Shown here: positions 8,913 through 21,043 of the stretch, one piece after another
Position numbering within the stretch: the first letter of the stretch is position 1
Layout: each line of letters opens with the position of its first letter
Assembly: GCA_036274075.1 (NCBI GenBank)
Contig: DASUGK010000115.1
Span: 34,944-98,943, forward strand
Direction of reading: 5' to 3'
Source: Steroidobacteraceae bacterium
GTDB taxonomy: Bacteria; Pseudomonadota; Gammaproteobacteria; Steroidobacterales; Steroidobacteraceae
DNA length: 64,000 nucleotides
Notes under the pieces: generated by a model
Database searches by the model: none
What the model was told of the DNA's origin: nothing
What the model saw: the letters and a program-made list of their open reading frames with translations, nothing else
Made by a program: the position numbers and the translations under genes

Positions 8913-9635
8913 TCAGCCGGTGAGTGCCACCTGCCCCATGCCGCCGGGAATGGCGCTTTCCAACGGCGCGGCCTGGCGCCGCTCGGCGCGCTGCACGGCC
9001 GCGTCCACCATGGTCGCGAACAGCACCGCGGTGTCGTCGAGGCTCTGCGTCGCCAGCCCGAGATCCCGCGGCCGGCGCACGATCTGCTGGCAGCAGCTGG
9101 AAACCTGGTTGTCGCGCACGCTGTCGACCACGGATCCTTCCGCGAGCGCGCGCAATGCCTTGTCGGTGACTCCGCCCCGCAACGAAGCCTGGTGCCACAA
9201 CGGGTAGAGCACGCGCGGCATGCGCTCGAAGAACCACAGGTAGCCCACGAGTCCCACCGCGGCACGTTCGACCAGCTGGTAGTGGGCGTACGCGGCCAGC
9301 GCGATGGTCTGTGGCAGCGGCGTGAGTGACACGCTGTCGAGCGAATTCAGCCCGAGCGAGCGCAGGTCGTCGAGAAACGAACGACCCTGGTGGAAGGCCA
9401 GCGCGGGAACGGACAGCAGCTCCTGCCAGGCGCTCCAGTCTTCGGCCGGAACGACGTCGGCGGCGATCTCGCGCAGCCGCGAGTGCACGTTGATGACGTA
9501 GTTGAGCTCGAGGAGAAGTTGCCGATGTGTCGCCGCGCCGAGCGCGTTGCCGCGAAACCACTCCATCGTCCCGGCCAGCGCCGAGGACCGCGTGAGAACG
9601 TCGAACTCGAGCGAGAAAACGTCGGCGCTGTTCAT
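8913..9635 (-). CDS. hypothetical protein, probably all-alpha and cytoplasmic
   Basis: 240-aa ORF with typical GC3-rich codon usage. I recognise no motif with confidence. It is divergent from the first CHAT gene. Confidence 0.5.
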   Translation of the reverse strand: MNSADVFSLEFDVLTRSSALAGTMEWFRGNALGAATHRQLLLELNYVINVHSRLREIAADVVPAEDWSAWQELLSVPALAFHQGRSFLDDLRSLGLNSLDSVSLTPLPQTIALAAYAHYQLVERAAVGLVGYLWFFERMPRVLYPLWHQASLRGGVTDKALRALAEGSVVDSVRDNQVSSCCQQIVRRPRDLGLATQSLDDTAVLFATMVDAAVQRAERRQAAPLESAIPGGMGQVALTG

Positions 9636-9681
9636 CCCTTGGCCTGTGGTCGTGGCGCGGCAAACTGGTCTTGCCTATGTA

Positions 9682-9708
9682 GTGTCACGAGTTCAGGGTT
9701 TCTCTCAC
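9682..9708 (+). promoter_or_regulatory. bipartite motif GTGTCAC-N12-TCTCTCAC, copy A (upstream of CHAT paralog 1, in the divergent control region)
   Basis: Read directly from the sequence. Same half-sites and same 12-nt spacing as copies B and C. Confidence 0.55.
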
Positions 9709-9745
9709 TTGGCGCTGTCATAACCACAAACTATTTTCAATCAAA

Positions 9746-9766
9746 GACTTACTACAAACCCTGCCT
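9746..9766 (+). promoter_or_regulatory. conserved 21-nt block GACTTACTACAAACCCTGCCT, copy 1
   Basis: Identical 21-mer to 13303-13323. It lies 64 nt downstream of the start of bipartite motif copy A. Confidence 0.5.
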
Positions 9767-9840
9767 CCATTCTCCAATTCCGTTGCAGCGTGACGCAGGT
9801 GCCTGTAAACATTGGCGTTGCAACAAGGGGACTCGAGGTC

Positions 9841-12800
9841 ATGCGCGCCTGCGCCGGCGCCGAAAACGCCAATAAAAAACGCCTGCGCGCATTGTTCCAG
9901 ACACTGTGTACCGCCTGGGTGCTGTGCCTTTGTGCCTGCACCGGAAGCTTCGAGACCGAACCACTCGTCGAATTCTCCACCGAGGTGGTGGTCGGCGGCG
10001 CGCAGCCGCATTCCATCGCCCGCCAGCTGGACGCGGGTACATGGCTGCTCGAGGTCCGTGAACGCGATGTCGACCTGCGCGTGAAGGTGGAGGCCGGCGG
10101 GGCGCGCACCGAACTCGCCGATGCCTTCCTGCGCCACGGCGTGCACCGCATGGTAGTTAGCCTGCCGGAACGGTCGCGGTTCGAAGTGACGCTGGTCAGC
10201 ACCGACCAGCGCGAGTGGAAGGGCGCCGCCGCGGTACGCATCCTGCGCTGGCCCGCGAGCGAGCCGGATGCGGAGCCCGACCACCGCCTGCTCGGATTCC
10301 GCGCACTGGGAGAAGGCAGCGCAGTCGCCGCGCAGGACAACGCCGGGGCGTGGCGCTCGGCGCTGGGTCCGCTGCGCGAGGCCGAGCGGCAGTTCCAGGC
10401 GGCCGGTGACATCCAGTCGCTGGCGGAGGCGGAATACCAGCGCGCCTGGATCGAGCTGGGACTGCTGCACGACCACGGCGCGAGCCGCCGGACCGCGGCG
10501 TCGGCCCTGGCCCATTTCCGCCACAGCGGCGACGCGGTGGGCGCGCATCGGGCAGGAGTCCTGCTGGGCCAGGCGGAATTCGGCGTGGCCGCGAACATGG
10601 GACCGCGAGTGCGGCGCACCGAACAACTTGCGCTGCTCAACACGGCGGCGCGGCGCATGACCCAGGCGCTGGTGTTCTTCGAAAGGCGGGACCTGCAGTC
10701 CGATGTCCTGGCCGCGATGGGCTGGTCGCGCACCCGCGAGAAGCTGCTGGGACGTTGCGATGAGAACGTCACGGTCCACGAAAACATCCGCCAGCGCGCG
10801 CGGGCGCGCGGCGATCGGTACTTCGAGGCGGTCGCCGCGATGGACCTCGGCGACATCGCGCAGCGGCGCGGTGATCTGGTGCAGGCCGCTGCGCTGTACG
10901 AGGGTGCGCTGCCGTCGATCGATCGCGACCGCAACCCGGAGTTGTACGCGAGGTTGATTTCCCGGCTCGGGACCGCGCTACTGGCGCGCGGTGAATTCGA
11001 CCGGGCGCAGGCGCTCCACTCGGAAGCCCTGGGCGTGTTCTCTGCGCGCGGTGACGACAGCGCGATGGCGCGCGAACTCGTCGCGCTGGCGTCGCTGCGG
11101 TTGAGTACCGGGAGCGTGGAGCGCGCCCTGCACATCGTCCAGTCTGCGCTGCCGGTGTACGAGAGCACACGCGACCTGGAAGGCAAGGTCTCGGCCCTGC
11201 AGGTCGCCGGCAACGCCGCCGCCGCACTCGGGCGACACGAGCAGGCCCTCGGGTACCTGCGCACGGCCGAGCGCCTCGATCGCCACGGTTCCAGCGTCGA
11301 TCGCACACGCGTGCTCATCGCCCGTGAAATGCGCCTGCTCGGCAACCTGGGCGGCGCGGAAGAAATGCTCGCCAAGGCGCTGCAGACGCGGAACGAGGCG
11401 GTGCACGCAGACACGCTGGCGGAACGCGCGCAATTGCGCATGCACCAGCTGCGGCAACGCGAAGCCCTCGCCGACCTGCGCGCCGCCGACGCGCGTTACT
11501 CGCAGCTCAAGCTCGACTTCAGGCGCATCGAGTCGAGCTCGGCGCTGTCGCTGGCGCTGCTGGATGCGGGTGACATCCCGGGCGCGGGCAAGGCTGCCGA
11601 CATCGCGGTGGCCTTGGAACGCCGCATCCGCGCCAGGGCCTCCAACCCCGAGATGCGGGCGCGTTTCCTGTCGGCCAGTTACTCGCCCTACGAAGCGCGT
11701 ATCGAGGTCGACCTCGCCGGTGCGACATCCGATCGCGACGCGGTGTGGCGCGCCTTTCGCACGGCCGAGGCCGTGCGCGCGCGATCGCTCGCCGACCGGC
11801 TGGCGCAGACCTCGCGCGGCCCCACGCGACGCGACGCCGAGATCGACGGGCTGCGACAGACCATGGCGTCGCTGCAACTGGATCTCGACAGGATGTCGGA
11901 GGACGGCGTCGACGCGCGGGCACTGATGGAGACGCGGCGGCGCATCGACGCCACGCAGGCGCGCCTCGAGGCACGCCTGCTGCGCCAGGATGGCGTGCAG
12001 GCATCCATCCAGACCGGCATTCCCGAATCGCGTGCCTCGGCGCAGTCGCTGCTGCCCGATGACGCGGCCGTGCTGGCGTTCTTCGTGGGCGAGCGCCGCT
12101 CGCATGGCTGGCTGCTGACCCATCGCGAGCTGCGGCACGCGGTGCTGCCCGGGCGCGCCGTGCTCAACGAGCTCGTCGCGGCCACCATCTCGCAACAACG
12201 CGCGACGGTGAAATCACCGGCGGTGAACGCCTTCACGCCGATGCTGGATTCACTGCTGCAGGGCGTGGCCGCGAAGCGGCTGCTGATCCTTCCCGACGGC
12301 CCGCTGCACGGCATGCCGTTCGCGACCATCCCGCTGCCGCGCGGAACGTCGCGGGAGCTGCTGATCGACCGGTTCGTGATCGCCGGCGCGCCTTCGCTCG
12401 CCGTGGCACTGCGTCCGGCGCCGCGGCACCGCGATGACGGGACGCTGGTGGCGGTGATCTCCGACCCGGTCTACACCTCGGACGACCGGCGGCTGACCGT
12501 CGCGACCGGAGACGCGGCATTGTTCCGCGGTGACGACGGCGAGTCGCACCGCCTGGCGCGCCTGCCCTACTCGGCCATCGAGGCGCGTTCGGTGATGCGC
12601 GTCTTCGACGGCGCGCGCATCATCGCGCTCAACGGCTTCGACGCCACCGCGCGCCGCGTGGTCGCGCTGCCGTCGAAGGATCTCGACGTGCTGCATTTCG
12701 CCACGCACGCCGTGATCCGCGAGGACGCACCGGAGCAGTCCGCGCTGTTCCTCAGTGAATACGCCGCCGACGGTTCACCGGTGGCCGCGGACCGCCTCAC

Positions 12801-13125
12801 CGCCGACGACATCACGCGCAGCGGCCTGCGTGCCGACATCGTGGTGCTCTCCGGCTGCGCCACCGGCGATGGCCGCGAGCTGCGCGGCGAAGGCGTGCTC
12901 GGGCTCACCTACGGCTTCCTCGCCAATGGTTCCAATACCGTCGTGGCATCGTTGTGGCCGGTGGAGGACGCGCTGACCGCGCGGTTCATGGAAGAGTTCT
13001 ACACGGCGTACCGTGCGACGGGACACGCCGCCGAGGCGTTGCGCGCCGCGCAACTGCGCGGCCGCAACAAGACCGGGCCCACCGTCTGGTCGAGTTTCGT
13101 GGTGCGGTCCAACAGCCTGCCCTGA
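9841..13125 (+). CDS. TPR-repeat CHAT-domain (caspase-like peptidase) protein, probable lipoprotein, paralog 1
   Basis: ATG 9841 has AAGGGGA 9 nt upstream; the GTG at 9790 is an alternative start. Signal/lipobox ...WVLCLCAC. Long helical TPR-like middle region. C-terminal CHAT motifs LHFATHAVIR (His codon 12706-12708) and VVLSGCATGDG (Cys codon 12856-12858). Confidence 0.85.
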   Translation: MRACAGAENANKKRLRALFQTLCTAWVLCLCACTGSFETEPLVEFSTEVVVGGAQPHSIARQLDAGTWLLEVRERDVDLRVKVEAGGARTELADAFLRHGVHRMVVSLPERSRFEVTLVSTDQREWKGAAAVRILRWPASEPDAEPDHRLLGFRALGEGSAVAAQDNAGAWRSALGPLREAERQFQAAGDIQSLAEAEYQRAWIELGLLHDHGASRRTAASALAHFRHSGDAVGAHRAGVLLGQAEFGVAANMGPRVRRTEQLALLNTAARRMTQALVFFERRDLQSDVLAAMGWSRTREKLLGRCDENVTVHENIRQRARARGDRYFEAVAAMDLGDIAQRRGDLVQAAALYEGALPSIDRDRNPELYARLISRLGTALLARGEFDRAQALHSEALGVFSARGDDSAMARELVALASLRLSTGSVERALHIVQSALPVYESTRDLEGKVSALQVAGNAAAALGRHEQALGYLRTAERLDRHGSSVDRTRVLIAREMRLLGNLGGAEEMLAKALQTRNEAVHADTLAERAQLRMHQLRQREALADLRAADARYSQLKLDFRRIESSSALSLALLDAGDIPGAGKAADIAVALERRIRARASNPEMRARFLSASYSPYEARIEVDLAGATSDRDAVWRAFRTAEAVRARSLADRLAQTSRGPTRRDAEIDGLRQTMASLQLDLDRMSEDGVDARALMETRRRIDATQARLEARLLRQDGVQASIQTGIPESRASAQSLLPDDAAVLAFFVGERRSHGWLLTHRELRHAVLPGRAVLNELVAATISQQRATVKSPAVNAFTPMLDSLLQGVAAKRLLILPDGPLHGMPFATIPLPRGTSRELLIDRFVIAGAPSLAVALRPAPRHRDDGTLVAVISDPVYTSDDRRLTVATGDAALFRGDDGESHRLARLPYSAIEARSVMRVFDGARIIALNGFDATARRVVALPSKDLDVLHFATHAVIREDAPEQSALFLSEYAADGSPVAADRLTADDITRSGLRADIVVLSGCATGDGRELRGEGVLGLTYGFLANGSNTVVASLWPVEDALTARFMEEFYTAYRATGHAAEALRAAQLRGRNKTGPTVWSSFVVRSNSLP

Positions 13126-13240
13126 ACGCGCGCGGCCGGCAGGCCCCCTAACTACCTGGAACCGGCGGGCCCGGGCGGGCGCTCGCGGCCGGGAGCCGCG
13201 TCGCCCCGGCCGCCCAAAACCCGGCGGCCATTCGTTATAA

Positions 13241-13267
13241 GTGTCACGACTTCGCGATTTCTCCCAC
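13241..13267 (+). promoter_or_regulatory. bipartite motif GTGTCAC-N12-TCTCCCAC, copy B (upstream of CHAT paralog 2)
   Basis: Read directly from the sequence. Same half-sites and same 12-nt spacing as copies A and C. Confidence 0.55.
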
Positions 13268-13302
13268 CTGCAACCGCAGGCCGCGAAGATTTTTTCTCGC
13301 CG

Positions 13303-13323
13303 GACTTACTACAAACCCTGCCT
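13303..13323 (+). promoter_or_regulatory. conserved 21-nt block GACTTACTACAAACCCTGCCT, copy 2
   Basis: Identical 21-mer to 9746-9766. It lies 62 nt downstream of the start of bipartite motif copy B. Confidence 0.5.
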
Positions 13324-13398
13324 ACGAAATCGACGCTCAATTGCGGCACAATGCCTGTGCCAGTCAACACTTACCCCCGCCGCGGGGGGTCCGCTTGC

Positions 13399-16300
13399 AT
13401 GTCCTTCCGCGATCGAGTCGCCATTGATTTCGCCCTGAATCCGCGGACCGGCGTCGTCACGGTTTTCTGCGCCGCCTGCGCGTTCATGATGGCCGCGTGC
13501 ACCGGTGGATCCGGTCGGGAGCTTACCGAAGTCCTGTCCAGCGATCTGCCGGTGGGCCCCGACGCGCCCGCGAATGCCGCACCGCAGCTTCCGCCGGGCG
13601 TGTACCTGGTCGAAGTGCGCGAACGGGACGTCGACCTGCGCGTGGTCATCGACGCGGCCGGCAGCCACGCGGAGCTCGAGGACGGCGTGCAGCGCCACGG
13701 CCTGCACGCCGACGTAGTTAGACTGCGACAGCCCGCGGCACTGCGCATCGAGGCACGCAGTGCCGACTACGGCGGCAAGCGCGGCAGCGCGCAGGTGCGC
13801 GTGTCGCGCTGGAAATACCCGGTGGACACGGCGCCGGACGAGCTGGAGAACGGCTTCACGGCCTTCGGCGCCGGCGGCCGCGAGACGGCGCGCGGTGAAC
13901 CCGCCGGCTGGGAGCGCGCCGCGCAGCAGCTGCGCCGCGCCAGCGCCCTGTTCGCGGAGGCCGCGGACGAGCCGGCGCGCGCGCAGGCCGAGTATTCGCT
14001 GGGAAGCCTGGAGTACCTGCTGCGCATGCAGTGGCAGGCGGCGATCCGCGCCGCCGACACCGCCGCCGACGGCTACGAATCGCTCGACGACGAGACCGGC
14101 CGGCACCGCGCCGGCGTGCTGCGGGCTTCCGCCGAGATCGAAATCGCCCGCGGAATGAGCGCGAGCTCTCAAACCGCCGAGCGCAACGCGCTGTTCGAGT
14201 CGATCGATCGGCGGCTGCGCGATGCGGCCGCGTACTTCGGCAAGGATGGCGCCGCGATCGACGAGGCCTACAGCATTAACATGCGCGGCGTCGGCTTCTA
14301 CAGCGCCGGCAACGACGCACGCGCCGCGGAGTTCTTCGCGCAGGCAGGCGAACTCGCGCGCCGCAACCAGGATTCGACGCTGGAGGTGAAGACGCTCAGC
14401 AACCTGGCCTGGATCCATCAGCGCCGCGGCGAGATTGCGCGCGCGGCGAGCGAATACCAGGCGTTGATGCCGCTGCTGGACCGTGATCGCGACGCCGACA
14501 TGTACGCAACCACGATCACCAACTACGGCCAGTGCCTGATCGCGCTCGGCGAGTTCGACCGCGCGCTGACGCTGCACACGCAGGCCCTCGAAGTATTCGC
14601 CACCCGCGGAGCCGACGCGGACCGCGGCAAGCAGCTCAATGCACTCGGCGGGCTCTACATCCGCGTCGGCGAGCTCGAACGCGCGCTGTCGACACTGCGC
14701 ACGGCCATTGAGGTGCACGGCAAGGTGGGCGCCGGCTGGGCGCGCGCCGCGGCCCTGCGCATGGCGGGCAACGTCGCAGGCGCACTCGGGGATCCGCGCG
14801 GGGCACTCGTCTACCTGCGCGAATCGATGGAGCAAGACGCTCAGCCCGAGGCCGTGGCGAGGACCCGGGTATTGATCGCAGCACAGCTGCGCGCGCTCGG
14901 CGACCTGCGCGGCGCGGAGCGCGAACTGGTCGAAGCACAGCGGGATGGCAGTGAGCTGACGCGCGCCAATGCCACGGCGGAGCGTGCCCGGCTGCGGCGT
15001 GCGCAGCGCGATTTCTCCGCGGCGCTGGCCGATGCGCGTGCCGCGGACGCATCGTACGAATCACTCGGGCTGGACTTCGACCGCATCGAGACCCACACGG
15101 TGATGTCGCAGTCCCTGATCGCCCTCGGCAACGCGCGCGAGGCACTGGCGGCAGCCAACGCGGCGATTGCCATCGAGCAGCGCATTCGCGTCGGATCCGC
15201 CAACCCGGAGTGGCGCGCGCGCTTCCTTGCTGAACGTTATTCGCCCTACGAGGCGCGTATAGCCGCCGAGCTCGCGGCCGGCGGCGACGATGCAGCCTGG
15301 CAGGCTTTTCGCACCACCGAGACCGTGCGCGCACGTTCGCTCGCCGAGCAGCTCGCGGCGCGGATGGATCTCCGGTCGAGCCGGGCGGTGACCGAAGTGG
15401 ACCCGGCCGGCAACGCGTTGCGCGCGGAACTCACCGCACAGCAGCTGCGACTCGAAAGCCGGATGGATCGCGGCGGCGCCGACCCCGCAGAACTCAGCGA
15501 ACTGCGGCGCTCCATCGAGGAGACGCGCGCGCGCATCGTCGCGAACGAATTGCGGCGGCGGGATATTTCCGGAGTGTCGGCAGCCGCCGCCAGGATTTCC
15601 GGCCAGCTGCGCGACGTGCAGGCCGCGATCCCGGCCGACACCGCCGTGCTGGCCTATTTCGTCGGCGACGAGAACAGCCACGCATGGCTGCTGACGCGCG
15701 ACTCGCTGCAGCACGCCACGCTGGCGGGACGTACCGGATTGCAACGCACGGTCGATGCCTTCGTCGCCGCGAGCCGCAGCGGCGCCGTGACGCCCGCCTC
15801 GCGCGCGGCCGGCCGCAACCTGCTCGGATCGCTGCTCGACCACGTCACGGCGAAACGCCTGCTGGTCATCGCCGATGGTCCGCTGTACGCCGTGCCGTTC
15901 GCCGCGCTGCAGCCCGCGGCGAGTTCGCCGGGTGTGTTGGTCGAGCGCTTCGTGATTTCCTATGCACCGTCGCTGGCGCTGGCCATGCACGCGCCGTCGG
16001 CGGCGGGAACCGCGACACGCGTCGCCGTGATCTCGGATCCGGTGTACGCGCAGGACGACAGCCGGCTGCGGCTCGCGTTGGCGGACGACGCCAGTGCCTA
16101 TCGCAGCGGCGAACAGCCGCGCGACAGGCTGACGCGCCTGCAGTATTCCGGCCTCGAAGGGCGCACCGTCGCGCGCGCGTTCGCCGGCCGCGACACCGTC
16201 GAGATCAGCGGCTTCGACGCCACGCCGGAACGCGTGCTGGCGCTGCGTTCCCAGCCCCTGTCGGTGCTGCACTTCGCCACGCACGCGCGGATCAGGCGCG

Positions 16301-16692
16301 ATTCGCCCGAGCAGTCGGCGCTCTATCTCAGCGAGTACAGCGCCAGCGGCCGGTCGATCGCCGAGTCGCGGCTCACCGCGGATGAAATCTCGCGCACCGG
16401 CCTGCGCGCGGACCTCGTGGTGCTGTCGGCCTGCGCCACCGGCGACGGCGGCGCGGTGCGCGGCGAGGGTGTGCTCGGACTCACCTATGCCTTCCTCGCG
16501 AACGGCTCGCGTTCGGTCGTGGCCTCGTTGTGGCCCATCCAGGACGCGTCCACCGCGCGTTTCATGAAGGAGTTCTACGACGCGTATCGCAAGACCGGCC
16601 GCGCCGCCGACGCGTTACGCACCGCCCAGCTGCACGAACGCGGTGGCGTCGCATGGACGAGTTTCGTCGTCCGCGCCAACGAATTTCCCTGA
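13399..16692 (+). CDS. TPR-repeat CHAT-domain (caspase-like peptidase) protein, probable lipoprotein, paralog 2
   Basis: ATG 13399 has a G-run 9 nt upstream; the ATG at 13351 is an alternative start. Signal/lipobox ...FCAACAFMMAAC. Collinear with paralog 1 (EVRERDVDLRV, YSPYEARI, AFRT.E.VRARSLA). CHAT dyad LHFATHARIR (His 16282-16284) and VVLSACATGDG (Cys 16432-16434). Confidence 0.85.
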   Translation: MSFRDRVAIDFALNPRTGVVTVFCAACAFMMAACTGGSGRELTEVLSSDLPVGPDAPANAAPQLPPGVYLVEVRERDVDLRVVIDAAGSHAELEDGVQRHGLHADVVRLRQPAALRIEARSADYGGKRGSAQVRVSRWKYPVDTAPDELENGFTAFGAGGRETARGEPAGWERAAQQLRRASALFAEAADEPARAQAEYSLGSLEYLLRMQWQAAIRAADTAADGYESLDDETGRHRAGVLRASAEIEIARGMSASSQTAERNALFESIDRRLRDAAAYFGKDGAAIDEAYSINMRGVGFYSAGNDARAAEFFAQAGELARRNQDSTLEVKTLSNLAWIHQRRGEIARAASEYQALMPLLDRDRDADMYATTITNYGQCLIALGEFDRALTLHTQALEVFATRGADADRGKQLNALGGLYIRVGELERALSTLRTAIEVHGKVGAGWARAAALRMAGNVAGALGDPRGALVYLRESMEQDAQPEAVARTRVLIAAQLRALGDLRGAERELVEAQRDGSELTRANATAERARLRRAQRDFSAALADARAADASYESLGLDFDRIETHTVMSQSLIALGNAREALAAANAAIAIEQRIRVGSANPEWRARFLAERYSPYEARIAAELAAGGDDAAWQAFRTTETVRARSLAEQLAARMDLRSSRAVTEVDPAGNALRAELTAQQLRLESRMDRGGADPAELSELRRSIEETRARIVANELRRRDISGVSAAAARISGQLRDVQAAIPADTAVLAYFVGDENSHAWLLTRDSLQHATLAGRTGLQRTVDAFVAASRSGAVTPASRAAGRNLLGSLLDHVTAKRLLVIADGPLYAVPFAALQPAASSPGVLVERFVISYAPSLALAMHAPSAAGTATRVAVISDPVYAQDDSRLRLALADDASAYRSGEQPRDRLTRLQYSGLEGRTVARAFAGRDTVEISGFDATPERVLALRSQPLSVLHFATHARIRRDSPEQSALYLSEYSASGRSIAESRLTADEISRTGLRADLVVLSACATGDGGAVRGEGVLGLTYAFLANGSRSVVASLWPIQDASTARFMKEFYDAYRKTGRAADALRTAQLHERGGVAWTSFVVRANEFP

Positions 16693-16711
16693 TTTGCCCA
16701 AGGAGACCCCG

Positions 16712-17254
16712 ATGATCAAGATCCCATTTCGATTTCGCAGTCTTGCCCGCCTGTGCCTCGCAGCGACGGCGTTCACAAGCGCGTCCGCGCTCGCGGGCGA
16801 TCCGGACCCAGCCGTCGCGCCGTGGCTCGGCAAGGAGATCACCATCACGTCGTCGACGCTGGGTGATCATGTGCCGCCAGGCGGCAAGCTCACCTTCGTC
16901 TACGACGGTGAAGACGACGTGGTGCGCGTTTGCACGCGTTCGGTCCCGACCAAGCGCGCGGTGTGGAAGATGGATCTCGCCGTGCCCTGCGCCGTGGCGC
17001 TGAACGTGGTGCGTGGCGAGCGTTATTGCTCCGACGACGAGGTGAAGACCGGTGACGCCGAAGTGCTGTCCACGTGCCACCGCCTGCGCAGCCACGACGT
17101 CGCGCTGCACGCGGCCGCCGCCAAGGACGCCGTGGAACTGCACGACGTGATCGTGTTCCTGCTGCAGCCCGGCGCGGACAAGAAGCATTCGATCTCGATC
17201 CTGCTGGATTCTCCGTCGCGCGTGACGCACGCCGGGCACATCATCGGCGAGTAG
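16712..17254 (+). CDS. small secreted hypothetical protein (4 Cys)
   Basis: AGGAGA lies 6 nt before ATG 16712. Signal peptide MIKIPFRFRSLARLCLAATAFTSASALA. No recognisable family. The gene starts 19 nt after the CHAT paralog 2 stop. Confidence 0.6.
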   Translation: MIKIPFRFRSLARLCLAATAFTSASALAGDPDPAVAPWLGKEITITSSTLGDHVPPGGKLTFVYDGEDDVVRVCTRSVPTKRAVWKMDLAVPCAVALNVVRGERYCSDDEVKTGDAEVLSTCHRLRSHDVALHAAAAKDAVELHDVIVFLLQPGADKKHSISILLDSPSRVTHAGHIIGE

Positions 17255-17256
17255 CC

Positions 17257-18810
17257 TTGACGAGCCGTTCTCTTGCGCGGGGCTTCTTCACCATCCTCCT
17301 GCCTTTCGCGGCCTCGGCCGCACTGGCGGGGGGCCTCGCGCAGGCGAACGAACCCGGAATCTGCGGCCGCAACCAGGCCGGGAGCCCGAACGGACTGCGG
17401 GCGCCGGCGGCGGTAACGGCCTACCTCGATTCACTGTCCGGCAGCACACGATTCGATTTGCGCGACGCCTGCGCCTCCTGGGCAGGGACGAATTCAGACC
17501 GCCGGCGTCGCGCAAACGATGGCGCGCGCGGTGACCCCGTCCCGGCACGCTTCATCGTGTTTCCCGCACCGGACGTGGAAATGCAGGCGCTGGCCTCGCA
17601 CCTGAAGCGGGATAACCACGTCTACAGCGTGGAAACCGCCAGCCGGTTCGTGGTCGCATCGTTCGACCGGCAGGTTTCGACGCGCCGGCTGCGACGTGTC
17701 CTCGACGATCCCCTGGTCGATTACGCCGAGCCCGACTGCGACGGGCCGGATTTCCTCACCACCTCCATCGAACTGCTCGACTACGGGCGCGACGGCTCGA
17801 GTTGCTGGCAGCGTGCCGCGCGTACCACGTTTCCCAACGATCCCTGCATCGACGAGCTGTGGGGACACACGAAGATCGGCTGGAATTCCGACATTGCGCG
17901 GCGTTCGCTGCCGCGCATCGTCGCCGTGCTGGATTCAGGCATCGATGCTGCGCACGAGGACCTCGCGAGCAACGTGTTGATCGACATTCCCGGCGAGCCG
18001 CGCGGCTCGCAGGGCAGCCGCCTGAATGCGCAGTGCGCCACCAGCGGCCTGTGTTATCCGCACGGCACCGAGATGGCCGGCACCATCGGCGGCCGCATGG
18101 ACAATGGCATTGGTGTCGCCGGCGTCGCACCGAACAGCCGGCTGCTGCCCATCGTCATCAGCCGGGTCGACCACGGACTGCTGGCGCGCCTGTCCACCAT
18201 CGCCGAGGGCATCGATGCTGCGGTGCGGGGCGGCGCCGACGTGATCAACATCAGCGCCAAGTGGCCCGTGGACAGCCGCGCGATTTCCGCCGCCATCTAC
18301 GCGGCAGTGGGCGGGAATTCCTCCACCCGCCGGCTGGTGGTCACCGGCTATGCCACCAGCCTGCAGCGCGACGAGACGGTGCGCGAGTACTTCCCCTCCC
18401 GCTACCGTTGCCTGCCCGGCGTGGTCGCGGCCGTGCCCACGGACATGCGCGGGCGCGATCTGTTCAATCCCGAGGGCCGCCCAAGTGCGACGGACGGCAG
18501 GATTCAGGCACCCGGCGTGGACATCGTGGTGACAACGACCGAGAATTCCGCGCAAGGTTACGCGCTGTCCGAGGCAGCCGGCGCATCGAGCGCCGCGGCC
18601 TACGTTTCGGGCGCGGTAGCCCTGGTCTGGGGCAGCCCGCCGCTCAACAAATGCGACGCCCAGCAGATAAAACAGTTGCTGTTCTGCAGGAGCAAGTCCA
18701 GCAACTCGTCGCGGTACCCATGGATCAATGTCGATTTTCTCGGTGAACTCGGTTCGGTCGGCGCGGGCGCGGACTGCCACGCGGCCATGGAAGCGCTCGG
18801 CTGCACCTAA
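17257..18810 (+). CDS. S8 (subtilisin) family serine peptidase, divergent
   Basis: TTG start 2 nt after the preceding stop gives the signal-like LTSRSLARGFFTILLPFAASAALAGG. Triad motifs are VAVLDSGID (Asp 17932-17934), HGTEMAG (His 18061-18063) and GASSAAAYVSG (Ser 18586-18588). The usual AAGN oxyanion motif appears replaced by TGYA, but that alignment was done by eye. Confidence 0.75.
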   Translation: MTSRSLARGFFTILLPFAASAALAGGLAQANEPGICGRNQAGSPNGLRAPAAVTAYLDSLSGSTRFDLRDACASWAGTNSDRRRRANDGARGDPVPARFIVFPAPDVEMQALASHLKRDNHVYSVETASRFVVASFDRQVSTRRLRRVLDDPLVDYAEPDCDGPDFLTTSIELLDYGRDGSSCWQRAARTTFPNDPCIDELWGHTKIGWNSDIARRSLPRIVAVLDSGIDAAHEDLASNVLIDIPGEPRGSQGSRLNAQCATSGLCYPHGTEMAGTIGGRMDNGIGVAGVAPNSRLLPIVISRVDHGLLARLSTIAEGIDAAVRGGADVINISAKWPVDSRAISAAIYAAVGGNSSTRRLVVTGYATSLQRDETVREYFPSRYRCLPGVVAAVPTDMRGRDLFNPEGRPSATDGRIQAPGVDIVVTTTENSAQGYALSEAAGASSAAAYVSGAVALVWGSPPLNKCDAQQIKQLLFCRSKSSNSSRYPWINVDFLGELGSVGAGADCHAAMEALGCT

Positions 18811-18834
18811 CTACCGGCGCGCGCGGGGCACCCC

Positions 18835-19503
18835 GTGAGCGCGCTTTCCCTCGACGAAATCGAGAAAGTCGTGGCGGCGGCGCTCGACGGCGACCGCCAG
18901 GCCGAGTCGCGCATGCTGGCGGCGCTGCGGCCGGGCGTGCTCGCGGTGCTGCGTTTCGGGGCATTTCACCGCTGGATCGACGCCGAGGACCTGACGCAGG
19001 AAACCCTGCAGGTGGTCGTGGAACGCGTGCGCGCGCGGACCATCGACGATCCGCGCAAGGTGTTCGCCTTCGCCGCGGCGACCGCGCGCAACATGGCGCT
19101 GAACGCCGCGCGCAAGATGCTGCGCCAGCAGACCGTGGTCGACTCCGAGCTGGTCGACGAGCTGGCGCAGAACATGGAAACCGAGCCCGGCGACATGTCG
19201 GAGGCGGACGACCGCCACCTGGCCCAGGCCGTCATGGCGCTGCTGGACGAACTACCCACGCAGCGGGACCGCGAGGTGCTGGTACGGTTCTATCTAGACG
19301 GCACCGACAAGCAGCAGCTGTGCCGCGAACTCGGACTTTCCCCTAAGCATTTCGACCGTGTGCTGATGCGGGCCCGTACGCGGCTGCGCAACATCGTCGA
19401 ACGGCGCGCACCGCACCTGGCCCTGGTGCCGCGAATCTCGGCTGTTTTGCTCCCATTGGCGATTTCTTTCACGTTTTGGGTGAGAGATTTTGGCTCCTGG
19501 TGA
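18835..19503 (+). CDS. ECF-type RNA polymerase sigma-70 family factor with a ~33-aa hydrophobic C-terminal tail
   Basis: GTG start. Region 2 (DAEDLTQETLQVVVERV) and region 4 (LPTQRDREVLVRFYLDGTDKQQLCRELGLSPKHFDRVLMRARTRLRN) are recognisable. The tail ISAVLLPLAISFTFWV is encoded by atypically AT-rich codons. Confidence 0.85.
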   Translation: MSALSLDEIEKVVAAALDGDRQAESRMLAALRPGVLAVLRFGAFHRWIDAEDLTQETLQVVVERVRARTIDDPRKVFAFAAATARNMALNAARKMLRQQTVVDSELVDELAQNMETEPGDMSEADDRHLAQAVMALLDELPTQRDREVLVRFYLDGTDKQQLCRELGLSPKHFDRVLMRARTRLRNIVERRAPHLALVPRISAVLLPLAISFTFWVRDFGSW

Positions 19504-19506
19504 CAC
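19480..19506 (-). promoter_or_regulatory. bipartite motif GTGTCAC-N12-TCTCTCAC, copy C (inverted; spans the sigma stop codon and abuts the anti-sigma ATG)
   Basis: The plus strand reads GTGAGAGA-N12-GTGACAC, the exact reverse complement of the copy A half-sites. Confidence 0.5.
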
Positions 19507-20271
19507 ATGTCACTCATGAAGTCTCTTGATCGCCAATCGCTGGAAGAACAGGCGCGCCTGGTATCGCGTTATGTCGCGGGCGACCTGTCGCGTTCGGAAC
19601 GGGCCGAGTTCGAGGCCTGGCTGGTGGCATCCCCCGAACTGGCTGCCGAGGTCGAGATGGAACGCCGCCTGCGGCGTGGCATCGCGAGCGCGGCACGGCG
19701 CGGATGGCTGAAGCGCGGCACCGAGCCGGTGCCGGAGGCCCGCGAACAGCGCTGGCGCATGGCCATCGCCGCGAGCGTGGTCGTGTCTCTGCTGCTGATG
19801 GGCGTGACTTTCGTGTTGCCCAGTGGCTCATCCGACGAATCCCGGACAACCGCCAGCACCACGCCGGTGAAGCCATCGCTGCCGCGCATCGTGCGTCTCG
19901 GCGCGGTCCGTAGCCTGGAGACGACCCCCGACATCCTGGTGTCGCGCCTCACGCCGCCGAGCGAACTCACCATCGAGCCCGAAGTCGTTGTGCTCACCTG
20001 CCCCGATGGCAGGCTCGAGCTGGAATGCGCCGGTGGCGCCGCGCCGCAGACTCCGCAGTATCCCGAATACGAGATGGAACTCGTGAGCCGCCAGGTGTCG
20101 CACGTGGCATGGCGCTCCCCGCGACAGTTGCCGACGTCCGGTTCCGTGCTGTCGTTCGTGCTGAGCGAGCCCGAGCAACTGGAGGCCGGTGACTACGACG
20201 TCATCGTGCGGGGCCACTCCCCCGAGCACGAAGAAGTCGTGGCGCGCTTCTGGCTGCGCGTCACCGAGTAG
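19507..20271 (+). CDS. putative anti-sigma factor (non-zinc, single-pass membrane)
   Basis: Begins 3 nt after the sigma stop. N-terminal helix pattern YVAGDLSRSERAEFEAWLVASPELAAEV. One TM segment, WRMAIAASVVVSLLLMGVTFVL. About 140-aa exported C-terminal domain containing 2 Cys. Confidence 0.65.
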   Translation: MSLMKSLDRQSLEEQARLVSRYVAGDLSRSERAEFEAWLVASPELAAEVEMERRLRRGIASAARRGWLKRGTEPVPEAREQRWRMAIAASVVVSLLLMGVTFVLPSGSSDESRTTASTTPVKPSLPRIVRLGAVRSLETTPDILVSRLTPPSELTIEPEVVVLTCPDGRLELECAGGAAPQTPQYPEYEMELVSRQVSHVAWRSPRQLPTSGSVLSFVLSEPEQLEAGDYDVIVRGHSPEHEEVVARFWLRVTE

Positions 20272-20305: not shown

Positions 20306-21043
20306 TCAGCTCAGGTACTTCTTGATCCGCGCGTGCAGCGGCGAGTGCCGCGGGAAGTGCGCGCGCAGGTATTCCATCTGGTCGGCCAGCACGCGCCGTC
20401 CCTTCAGGAAGATGTACTCCGCGTAGGTCGGCGTGAACGGTACCGCGATGAGCTGCATCTTCGCCTGCTCGGGCGTGCGCGACGCCTTGAGGTTGTTGCA
20501 GCGGCGGCAGGCCGCGACCACGTTGGTCCACACGTCGCGGCCACCCTGGCTGAACGGCCGGATGTGATCGCGCGACAACTCGCGCACCGGGAAGCGCTGC
20601 GCGCAGTACATGCAGAAGTGCGCGTCGCGGCGGAACAGCGTCTGGTTGTTCAGCGGCGGCACGTAATCGTGGCGCGTGTTCCCGGGATTGCCGGTGTGCC
20701 CGATGGTGGCGACGATGGAATTCACTTCGAGCACGGTACGCAGGCCCGAGCGCGCACTCACGCCGCCGTAGAGCTTGAACAGCGGGCTGCCGCAGGTGTA
20801 CGCCACCTGTTCCTGGTGATACAGCCGCGCCGCTTCCTTGTAGTCGATCCACTCCAGCGGCATGCCGGACACGTCCGTTCGGAGCACGAGCTGGGAGAGC
20901 GCGCGGCTCGAGTAGCCCGCGATGAGGCGCAGATCGGAGAGGTCTCCACGATCCGCCTTTTCCAGATCGATGCCCAGCATTTGGCATGTAAGATAAGCCA
21001 GTCCTGTGCGAGAATTCAACGCCGCAAGACATTCATTTAACAC
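20306..21043 (-). CDS. HNH endonuclease family protein
   Basis: C-terminal HNH core CMYCAQRF...LSRDHIRPFSQGGRDVWTNVVAACRRCNNLK. The start is uncertain: GTG at 21043 or ATG at 20980. Confidence 0.75.
   Translation of the reverse strand: MLNECLAALNSRTGLAYLTCQMLGIDLEKADRGDLSDLRLIAGYSSRALSQLVLRTDVSGMPLEWIDYKEAARLYHQEQVAYTCGSPLFKLYGGVSARSGLRTVLEVNSIVATIGHTGNPGNTRHDYVPPLNNQTLFRRDAHFCMYCAQRFPVRELSRDHIRPFSQGGRDVWTNVVAACRRCNNLKASRTPEQAKMQLIAVPFTPTYAEYIFLKGRRVLADQMEYLRAHFPRHSPLHARIKKYLS

Follow-up and report, generated by a model that had tools for sequence, protein, structure and literature searches.

Genomic organization of the CHAT/ECF module

The stretch analysed here (hereafter the window) comprises 64,000 nucleotides of contig DASUGK010000115.1 (positions 34,944 to 98,943 of the forward strand; NCBI GenBank assembly GCA_036274075.1), which belongs to a Steroidobacteraceae metagenome-assembled genome with a G+C content of approximately 68%. 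It carries a module composed of two genes for TPR-CHAT lipoproteins (CHAT1 and CHAT2), a small secreted protein, an S8 subtilase, a sigma factor of the extracytoplasmic function (ECF) type and an anti-sigma factor. Within this module a bipartite DNA motif, GTGTCAC-N12-TCTCYCAC, is found three times: ahead of each of the two CHAT genes (copies A and B) and, inverted, over the junction between the sigma and anti-sigma genes (copy C). The coordinates of the genes, motif copies and accompanying elements are presented in Table 1.

Table 1. Genes, motif copies and accompanying elements of the CHAT/ECF module, with positions in the window, and motif sequences of the sister clade
Feature	Sequence	Position	Strand	Remarks
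Haem-oxygenase-like protein		8913-9635	-	
Copy A	AGTGTCACGAGTTCAGGGTTTCTCTCAC	9681-9708	+	132 nt upstream of CHAT1 ATG (9841)
A-specific conserved block	TTGATT-N16-TATGAC	9717-9744	-	
21-mer, copy 1	GACTTACTACAAACCCTGCCT	9746-9766	+	CHAT1 leader
TTGCAG/AAACAT blocks	TTGCAG-N18-AAACAT	9783-9812	+	In front of CHAT1; preceded by TGt
TPR-CHAT protein 1 (CHAT1)		9841-13125	+	Lipoprotein-type signal peptide
Terminator-like hairpin	GGCCGCC-CAAAACCC-GGCGGCC then ATTCGTTATA	13208-13229	+	Between CHAT1 stop and copy B
Copy B	AGTGTCACGACTTCGCGATTTCTCCCAC	13240-13267	+	131 nt upstream of CHAT2 ATG (13399)
21-mer, copy 2	GACTTACTACAAACCCTGCCT	13303-13323	+	CHAT2 leader; identical to copy 1
Equivalent blocks	TTGCGG ... 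TCAACA	13341-13369	+	In front of CHAT2
TPR-CHAT lipoprotein 2 (CHAT2)		13399-16692	+	
Small secreted protein		16712-17254	+	
S8 subtilase		~17257-18810	+	Probable TTG start
ECF sigma factor		18835-19503	+	222 aa, narrow family; proposed reader of the motif
RNA hairpin 1	TCTTTCAC-GTTTTGG-GTGAGAGA then UUUU	19465-19487	+	Inside last sigma codons
Copy C (inverted)	GTGTCACCAGGAGCCAAAATCTCTCAC	19480-19506	-	Sigma/anti-sigma junction
RNA hairpin 2	GGUGAC-ACAU-GUCAC core	19495-19519	+	Pairs sigma stop codon with anti-sigma start codon
Anti-sigma factor		19516-20271	+	N-terminal anti-sigma domain, one transmembrane segment, ~150-aa periplasmic domain
HNH endonuclease		20306-21043	-	
Sister-clade CHAT-upstream motif, L161	CTGTCACGA-N7-TTTCTCTCAC			
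Sister-clade CHAT-upstream motif, L157	CTGTCGCAA-N7-CTTCTCTCAC			
Sister-clade CHAT-upstream motif, L159	CTGTCGCGA-N7-GATCTCTCAG			

The intergenic gaps from CHAT2 to the anti-sigma gene measure 2-24 nt, with the genes for the small secreted protein and the subtilase packed tightly between CHAT2 and the sigma gene. A terminator search of positions 13400-19460 returned no convincing candidate, and the CHAT2-headed gene order that ends in the sigma and anti-sigma genes is identical in three clades. The sigma factor contains only the sigma-70 regions 2 and 4, together with a match to PF07638 and a short hydrophobic tail, and its family comprises just 13 clusters at E <= 1e-30 among 1.84 billion representatives. 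The tail (residues ~196-222, window positions 19420-19503) is a hydrophobic stretch, ISAVLLPLAISFTFWV, which follows region 4, is present in the sister and third clades as well, and may have a membrane-anchoring or regulatory role. The topology of the anti-sigma factor was read by eye from its sequence, and the CHAT or S8 proteases may cleave this protein. An earlier, sequence-only reading of the window had placed the anti-sigma start at ATG 19507. This codon is restricted to the window's own clade: orthologues read CACAAGTCACTC-ATG and have no ATG at the earlier position, so the start has to be moved to the conserved ATG at 19516, which lies 12 nt past the sigma stop codon and is not accompanied by a Shine-Dalgarno sequence.

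Three copies of a bipartite motif

A pattern search of the window for GTGTCAC-N12-TCTCYCAC returned exactly the three matches of the sequence-only reading, at 9682-9708 (+), 13241-13267 (+) and 19480-19506 (-). The three-copy pattern had no match in 100 dinucleotide-preserving shuffles of the window, and tolerating up to three mismatches in the window added just one, unrelated site; the heptamer GTGTCAC by itself occurs six times, which corresponds to the chance level. The full consensus covers 28 bases (AGTGTCAYGA-N8-TTTCTCYCAC), is usually followed by YT, has A/T-rich bases on its 5' side and is not palindromic. The shuffle test and the footprints found in approximately 30 species (see below) exclude an origin of the three copies by chance or as an artefact of paralogy.

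Copy A and the start codon of the divergent gene at 8913-9635 are 47 nt apart, a distance that had been given correctly before and that amounts to 42-47 nt in 85 of 89 instances. Copy B heads the unit of CHAT2, small protein, S8 peptidase, sigma and anti-sigma genes. Copy C spans the last 8 codons of the sigma gene (in the main clade V R D/H/V F G S W before the stop), the stop codon at 19501-19503 and the CAC that follows it, and ends 9 nt from the anti-sigma ATG at 19516.

Conservation of copies A and B and of their leaders

The sequence of the motif, its conservation, geometry and position, and its retention across clades were observed directly. The comparison set consisted of 36 related loci from approximately 30 species (sigma factors 77-100% identical). 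Every one of these loci with enough flanking DNA carries the motif at the same three places with at most two mismatches, and no further copy was found elsewhere in the 20 kb fetched around them. Copies A and B are near-invariant in the 36 loci while their flanks vary: copy B shows no mismatch in nearly all of the species, and the spacer length is constant in more than 130 main-clade instances, in which the middle 8 nt and the surrounding DNA differ.

The number of CHAT genes varies by species from one to three (three in L011 and L022), pseudogene remnants occur, and each CHAT copy has its own motif and leader, as illustrated by the three units of L011. Copy A is kept even after deletion of CHAT1 (L023 and L032), where the segment from the motif to a downstream 21-mer is still conserved beside the divergent gene. 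The unit that is duplicated or lost in L011, L022, L023 and L032 consists, in this order, of terminator, motif, leader and CHAT gene. The terminator-like hairpin between CHAT1 and CHAT2 ends 11 nt before copy B, and its arm sequences differ among species with the pairing maintained, as read by eye from the alignment.

Copies A and B had been described as embedded in otherwise diverged DNA, a view that has to be corrected, since their leaders have further blocks in common, namely the 21-mer, TTGCRG and CCTGTAAACAT, in that order. The 21-mer is near-invariant across the main clade and absent from the sister clade, and its core, ACAAACCC, begins 42-46 nt past the motif in at least 116 metagenome instances; it contains no palindrome, showed no fold and has no further copy within the window. 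The TTGCAG/AAACAT blocks are conserved at A, at B and in the sister clade; their score lies below the threshold of a sigma-70 consensus promoter scan, which returned no promoter in either CHAT upstream region. TTGCAG-N18-AAACAT may be a weak promoter of the sigma-70 type whose -10 element is extended. The TTGATT-N16-TATGAC block is present in all A regions, including those retained in L023 and L032, and absent from B; it is possibly a sigma-70-type promoter of the haem-oxygenase-like gene, and transcription from it would run through copy A and face the proposed forward promoter.

Several other identities were considered and rejected. RNAalifold gave consensus fold energies of -1.3 and -5.8 kcal/mol for the A and B leaders with no conserved RNA structure, and an Rfam search of these leaders at E <= 1 gave no match, which argues against a structured cis-regulatory RNA (riboswitch or leader) and indicates that the leader blocks act as sequence. 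The spacing in either leader does not fit a sigma-54 -24/-12 element, as judged by eye. The end of a mobile element or a repetitive extragenic palindrome was discarded on the basis of the non-palindromic motif, the synteny fixed in 36 loci, the flanks of the copies in other contexts, which are unrelated to the A/B leader, and the lack of an inverted partner marking a transposon end near the transposase of L042.

Geometry of the motif

Read in the forward direction, the motif takes the form TGTCAC-N16-YCAC(C/T)T. It thus has the generic make-up of an ECF promoter, in which a spacer of constant length (about 16-17 nt from the -35 core to the -10 core) but variable sequence lies between two conserved elements, and the 16 nt between TGTCAC and YCAC confirm the ECF-like geometry noticed earlier. 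The position of copy B, upstream of an operon encoding both the sigma and the anti-sigma factor, is the generic arrangement of ECF autoregulation, which is plausible here because the second CHAT unit ends in the sigma and anti-sigma genes. A promoter function is also supported, as far as sequence can tell, by the position of copy B directly after a terminator-like hairpin and by the absence of a sigma-70 consensus promoter upstream of either CHAT gene. The proposal that A and B are sigma-dependent promoters with autoregulation therefore gains support from the comparative evidence, short of proof.

Copy C at the sigma/anti-sigma junction

The exact match of copy C is restricted to the window's own clade, most species having one or two mismatches in TCTC. 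A position weight matrix derived from A and B was discarded for ranking copy C because it was over-fitted to paralogous spacers, and was replaced by a count over the 20 positions that are invariant in A and B; copy C scores 16/20 in the window and 14-15/20 elsewhere. On the same scale a weak look-alike, AATGTCTTGCGGCGTTGAATTCTCGCAC, at 21005-21032 (-), scores 15/20 and lies approximately 25 nt upstream of the HNH start of the orthologues. Different species share this site, but they share the entire region around it as well, which may be coding. Block 1 of the motif is sometimes preceded by its own inverted copy, in the forms CTCGGGACAC-N8-GTGTCACGAG, GCGACAGC-CGC-GCTGTCGC and GTGAC-N4-GTCAC (L076, 4580-4635; L157, 4283-4307; window, 19500-19513).

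Within the main clade the codons under copy C are strongly constrained. The normalised synonymous entropy is 0.15 in the last 13 sigma codons, which include those under copy C, versus 0.42-0.62 elsewhere in the gene; in 34 of 34 distinct genes the Arg codon inside copy C is AGR (6.5% elsewhere in those genes) and the Val codon is GTG (51% elsewhere). RNA structure accounts for part of this constraint, as the plus strand at the junction folds into two hairpins (-23.2 kcal/mol, z = -3.4). The 3' arm of hairpin 1 is block 2 of copy C, and one of its pairs shows compensatory changes (G-C, C-G, U-G) with a covariation score that 0 of 500 shuffles reach; this hairpin could attenuate read-through into the anti-sigma gene. 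It pairs codon 210 (ATG) with codon 218 (CAT), and the co-variation of Met210 and His218 is attributed to this RNA pairing. The 3' arm of hairpin 2 is poorly conserved.

Because it overlaps both coding sequence and an RNA hairpin, copy C was at first doubtful, and on the main-clade evidence alone it could be a look-alike of two functional sites, A and B, kept by the C-terminal codons of the sigma gene, by the terminator-like hairpin at 19465-19487 and by a coupling of anti-sigma translation to that of sigma. Such an explanation is consistent with the mapping of both blocks onto arms of the two RNA hairpins, the first of which covaries, and with the low scores and variable TCTC sub-block of copy C, which are weighed further below. 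It was confronted with the sister clade, whose sigma factors are approximately 50-53% identical and whose module is the same but lies among different neighbouring genes. Upstream of the sister-clade CHAT genes a forward motif is present approximately 170 nt from the ATG, with a spacer that is 1 nt shorter (Table 1). At the junction, the minus strand of six out of six sister sequences reads TCTGTCA(C/T)GAC-N7/8-...CTC(T/G)CAG, with 9-10 nt between the end of block 1 and the anti-sigma ATG, the same as in the main clade. Three of these sequences have the sigma stop codon within block 2, which leaves block 1 non-coding, and the other three have it within block 1, block 2 then being coding; the junction element is therefore kept regardless of the reading frame. 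The third clade carries CTGTCAC-N12-TATTTCAC over the sigma stop codon (core TGTCAC-N16-TCAC), with the anti-sigma start 58 nt away. A further locus, L168, in which a more distant ECF/anti-sigma pair occurs without CHAT, had diverged too far for interpretation.

Position 1 of the motif is G in all main-clade copies (A, B and C) and C in both kinds of sister-clade site (CHAT-upstream and junction), so that the two kinds of site change together. The sole DNA-binding protein encoded by the module is the sigma factor. Based on the inverted copies at the junction of the sister and third clades and on the shared change at position 1, copy C is probably functional. An antisense reading of copy C, which had been offered earlier for the window, gains support in the same way, with an inverted copy at the junction in three clades that is independent of frame in the sister clade. 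The look-alike explanation, in contrast, has to account for a sister clade whose junction retains CTGTCAYGAC-N7/8-...CTCTCAG even in those sequences that have a non-coding block 1 and their stop codon in block 2, for a position 1 that changes in step with the CHAT-upstream copies, for a third clade that keeps TGTCAC-N16-TCAC despite an anti-sigma start 58 nt off, and for true copies elsewhere that are likewise antisense at gene 3' ends. We consider it rather doubtful.

Motif copies in other genomic contexts

Metagenome contigs were scanned for exact matches to the 28-nt A/B consensus; the figures are lower bounds (at least 120 stretches). The scan returned at least 116 A/B-type instances and at least ~22 matches without the 21-mer. 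Three of the latter are chance matches (AT-rich DNA or inside the coding sequence of another organism), and the others listed represent at least ~10 independent G+C-rich contexts. The earlier statement that the motif is confined to the CHAT/ECF block consequently holds within the window but not genome-wide. The other-context copies listed have a T before the motif, often as TAGT, and CACYT after it. Genes for envelope proteins (PEP-CTERM, BON, lipoproteins, a DUF882 peptidase and a DUF676 esterase) prevail among their neighbours, which mostly lie on the opposite strand, and the copies resemble copy C in that most of them likewise point into a gene 3' end. Their flanks show no homology to the A/B leaders (p > 0.05; the resemblance in L131 is at chance level), and no orthologues of the genes of these contexts are located inside the window. 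A tRNA gene is near the motif in only one context among the matches listed (tRNA-Pro, 320 nt downstream, L070). In L141, a truncated AHSA1/SRPBCC-like pseudogene with an in-frame stop is found ~15-330 nt past the forward motif, which suggests a local rearrangement beside that copy.

These contexts bear on the main rival explanation, in which the 28-mer would be an operator for a DNA-binding regulator encoded elsewhere (e.g. a winged-helix protein on TnTCAC repeats 20 bp apart), acting independently of orientation on the CHAT, divergent and anti-sigma genes and on other envelope genes. The motif is found in both orientations relative to its neighbours, including two convergent intergenic regions among the matches listed; it lies 37-47 nt upstream of an oppositely oriented ATG in three independent contexts (copy A, L131 and L141); its conserved blocks are long (10 + 10 nt) and contain the TnTCAC direct repeat; and the possible sigma-70-type promoter downstream of A and B could be the regulated element. 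However, the module encodes no regulator of this kind, although it keeps both kinds of site in new neighbourhoods with a concerted base change. The half-site similarity is also weak in B (CCCAC), the 20-bp spacing is unlike the 10-11 bp repeats of OmpR/PhoB-type sites, and the sister clade differs in spacing by 1 nt, a change that is tolerated by sigma promoters. An operator is, in our estimation, possible but on the improbable side.

The motif could also be read in reverse (GTGRGAGAAA-N8-TCRTGACAC), as a promoter of the anti-sigma gene (near-leaderless), of the haem-oxygenase-like gene and of other genes 37-47 nt downstream. In this orientation it is co-directional with the next gene in five of the six tandem contexts among the matches listed, and its spacing to the ATG is consistent, with 9-10 nt before the anti-sigma gene of two clades and 37-47 nt before three further genes. 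But copy B and all the sister-clade CHAT-upstream copies would then face nothing, each duplicated CHAT gene keeps a forward copy, the ECF-like elements GAAAC and CGT would be just 8 nt apart, and the third clade has 58 nt before the anti-sigma ATG. A promoter in the reverse orientation is thus very unlikely.

Proposed function of the motif

In the explanation that we favour, the ECF sigma factor encoded at 18835-19503 would recognise the motif, reading TGTCAC as its -35 element and, after a further 16 nt, YCAC(C/T)T as its -10 element. Copies A and B would serve as promoters for this sigma factor, with transcription predicted to start near 9715 and 13274, driving the two TPR-CHAT lipoprotein genes and, through the unit headed by B, the sigma gene itself, which would result in positive autoregulation. 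Copy C would be a third site for the same holoenzyme, inverted at the sigma/anti-sigma boundary. When free sigma is available, polymerase at copy C would start an antisense transcript near 19473 into the sigma gene, or block sense polymerases entering the anti-sigma gene, or both; either effect would shift the balance between sigma and anti-sigma. From the comparison of sequences we infer that the sigma factor binds the motif, where transcription would start and what copy C would do.

A number of observations weigh against this explanation. ECF promoters are not usually as long as the motif, which has ~20 invariant positions that include bases flanking both elements, and YCAC is taken as the -10 element by analogy only. 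The TCTC sub-block, invariant in A and B, reads TGTC, TGCC or ACTC in copy C of other species; by mismatch count copy C barely beats two other sites of the cluster, located within the sigma gene and ahead of the HNH gene; and the main-clade sequence of copy C is also explained by coding, by the covarying hairpin and by the hairpin that sequesters the start codon. In the other contexts, the motif points into a gene 3' end, 1-190 nt from the stop codon, at least seven times and lies 37-40 nt upstream of a divergent ATG at least twice, which is hard to reconcile with a promoter that serves protein-coding genes only, and no terminators marking small RNA genes were found downstream of these copies. 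Taking all evidence together, we lean slightly towards a motif that provides sigma-dependent promoters and, at the sigma/anti-sigma junction, a conserved antisense or roadblock site. A more extensive version can be put forward only tentatively: the sigma factor may start both sense transcripts of the CHAT operons and antisense transcripts at the boundary and, via inverted promoters at the 3' ends of envelope genes (PEP-CTERM, BON, lipoprotein, DUF882), may control a regulon with a large proportion of cis-antisense targets, including a device that alters the sigma/anti-sigma ratio upon release of the sigma factor.

Most ECF sigma groups, to our knowledge, are still without a known promoter, and the present analysis supplies a testable promoter for a narrow ECF family of an uncultured lineage, wired to two TPR-CHAT lipoproteins and a subtilase. 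Co-transcription normally results in a fixed ratio of sigma to anti-sigma factor. This ratio could be broken by a sigma-dependent site located between the two genes, and if copy C works as a promoter or a roadblock, it would represent a new control device between sigma and anti-sigma.

Comparison with known systems

The sequence-only reading had named a TGTCACA-type -35 element for group ECF41, and the target promoters of this group are indeed TGTCACA-n16-CGTC (Wecke et al. 2012, PMC3426412). The motif shares with them the -35 core TGTCAC(G/A), the ~16-nt spacer and the location upstream of an operon that includes the sigma gene. It differs in its -10 element, YCAC(C/T)T instead of CGTC. ECF41 sigma factors possess a fused C-terminal regulatory domain (SnoaL-like, ~100 aa) and no anti-sigma factor, whereas the present sigma of 222 aa has no such extension and has a separate membrane anti-sigma encoded next to it; and ECF41 genes adjoin COE genes (carboxymuconolactone decarboxylase, oxidoreductase, epimerase), unlike the CHAT, S8 and haem-oxygenase-like genes found here. 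Membership in ECF41 was therefore rejected. The main text of an ECF classification paper (PMC7826278) mentions neither CHAT nor the motif.

The hrp box of HrpL (ECF32), GGAACCNA-N13-14-CCACNNA with the -10 variants CACCT and CACTT (PMC10384996), matches the motif in its -10 element (CCAC/CACCT/CACTT) and in the distance of this element from the -35 hexamer. The -35 element itself, GGAACC for HrpL versus TGTCAC here, does not fit, and the regulon, organism and sigma factor are unrelated, so that the motif was not assigned to the hrp boxes. No HrpL-specific family was present in the best 25 of 41 NCBIfam matches of the sigma factor. The pho box of PhoB consists of CTGTCAT direct repeats every 11 bp. 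Block 1 of the motif (GTGTCAT/GTGTCAC; CTGTCAC in the sister clade) resembles one such half-site, but there is no second half-site at 11 bp, the second block, CTCYCAC, being 20 bp away.

In Myxococcus xanthus, the anti-sigma factor DdvA carries a periplasmic TPR-CHAT domain and is the partner of the ECF sigma DdvS, whose promoters read GTAA-n16-CGT (PMC6061681, PMC11506125). Both systems tie an ECF sigma/anti-sigma pair to TPR-CHAT proteases and have several sigma-dependent (here putative) promoters in one locus. The promoter sequences are unlike, and TPR-CHAT is fused to the anti-sigma in DdvA, while here two TPR-CHAT lipoproteins, an S8 protease and a small anti-sigma factor are encoded separately, so that the module looks like a split DdvA arrangement. 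An inverted site at the sigma/anti-sigma junction is not described for DdvS.

The copies that face the 3' ends of genes hint that envelope proteins may be under antisense control of an ECF sigma factor. RNA-based repression of envelope proteins driven by ECF sigma factors is found in E. coli, where sigma-E acts through MicA, RybB and MicL, and in B. subtilis, where sigma-X and sigma-M drive an RNA antisense to yabE. If the forward reading of the motif is right, the present sigma factor would similarly start RNAs that oppose genes for envelope proteins. The predicted RNAs would differ from those systems in being cis-antisense transcripts that start at gene 3' ends, including the 3' end of the sigma factor's own gene.

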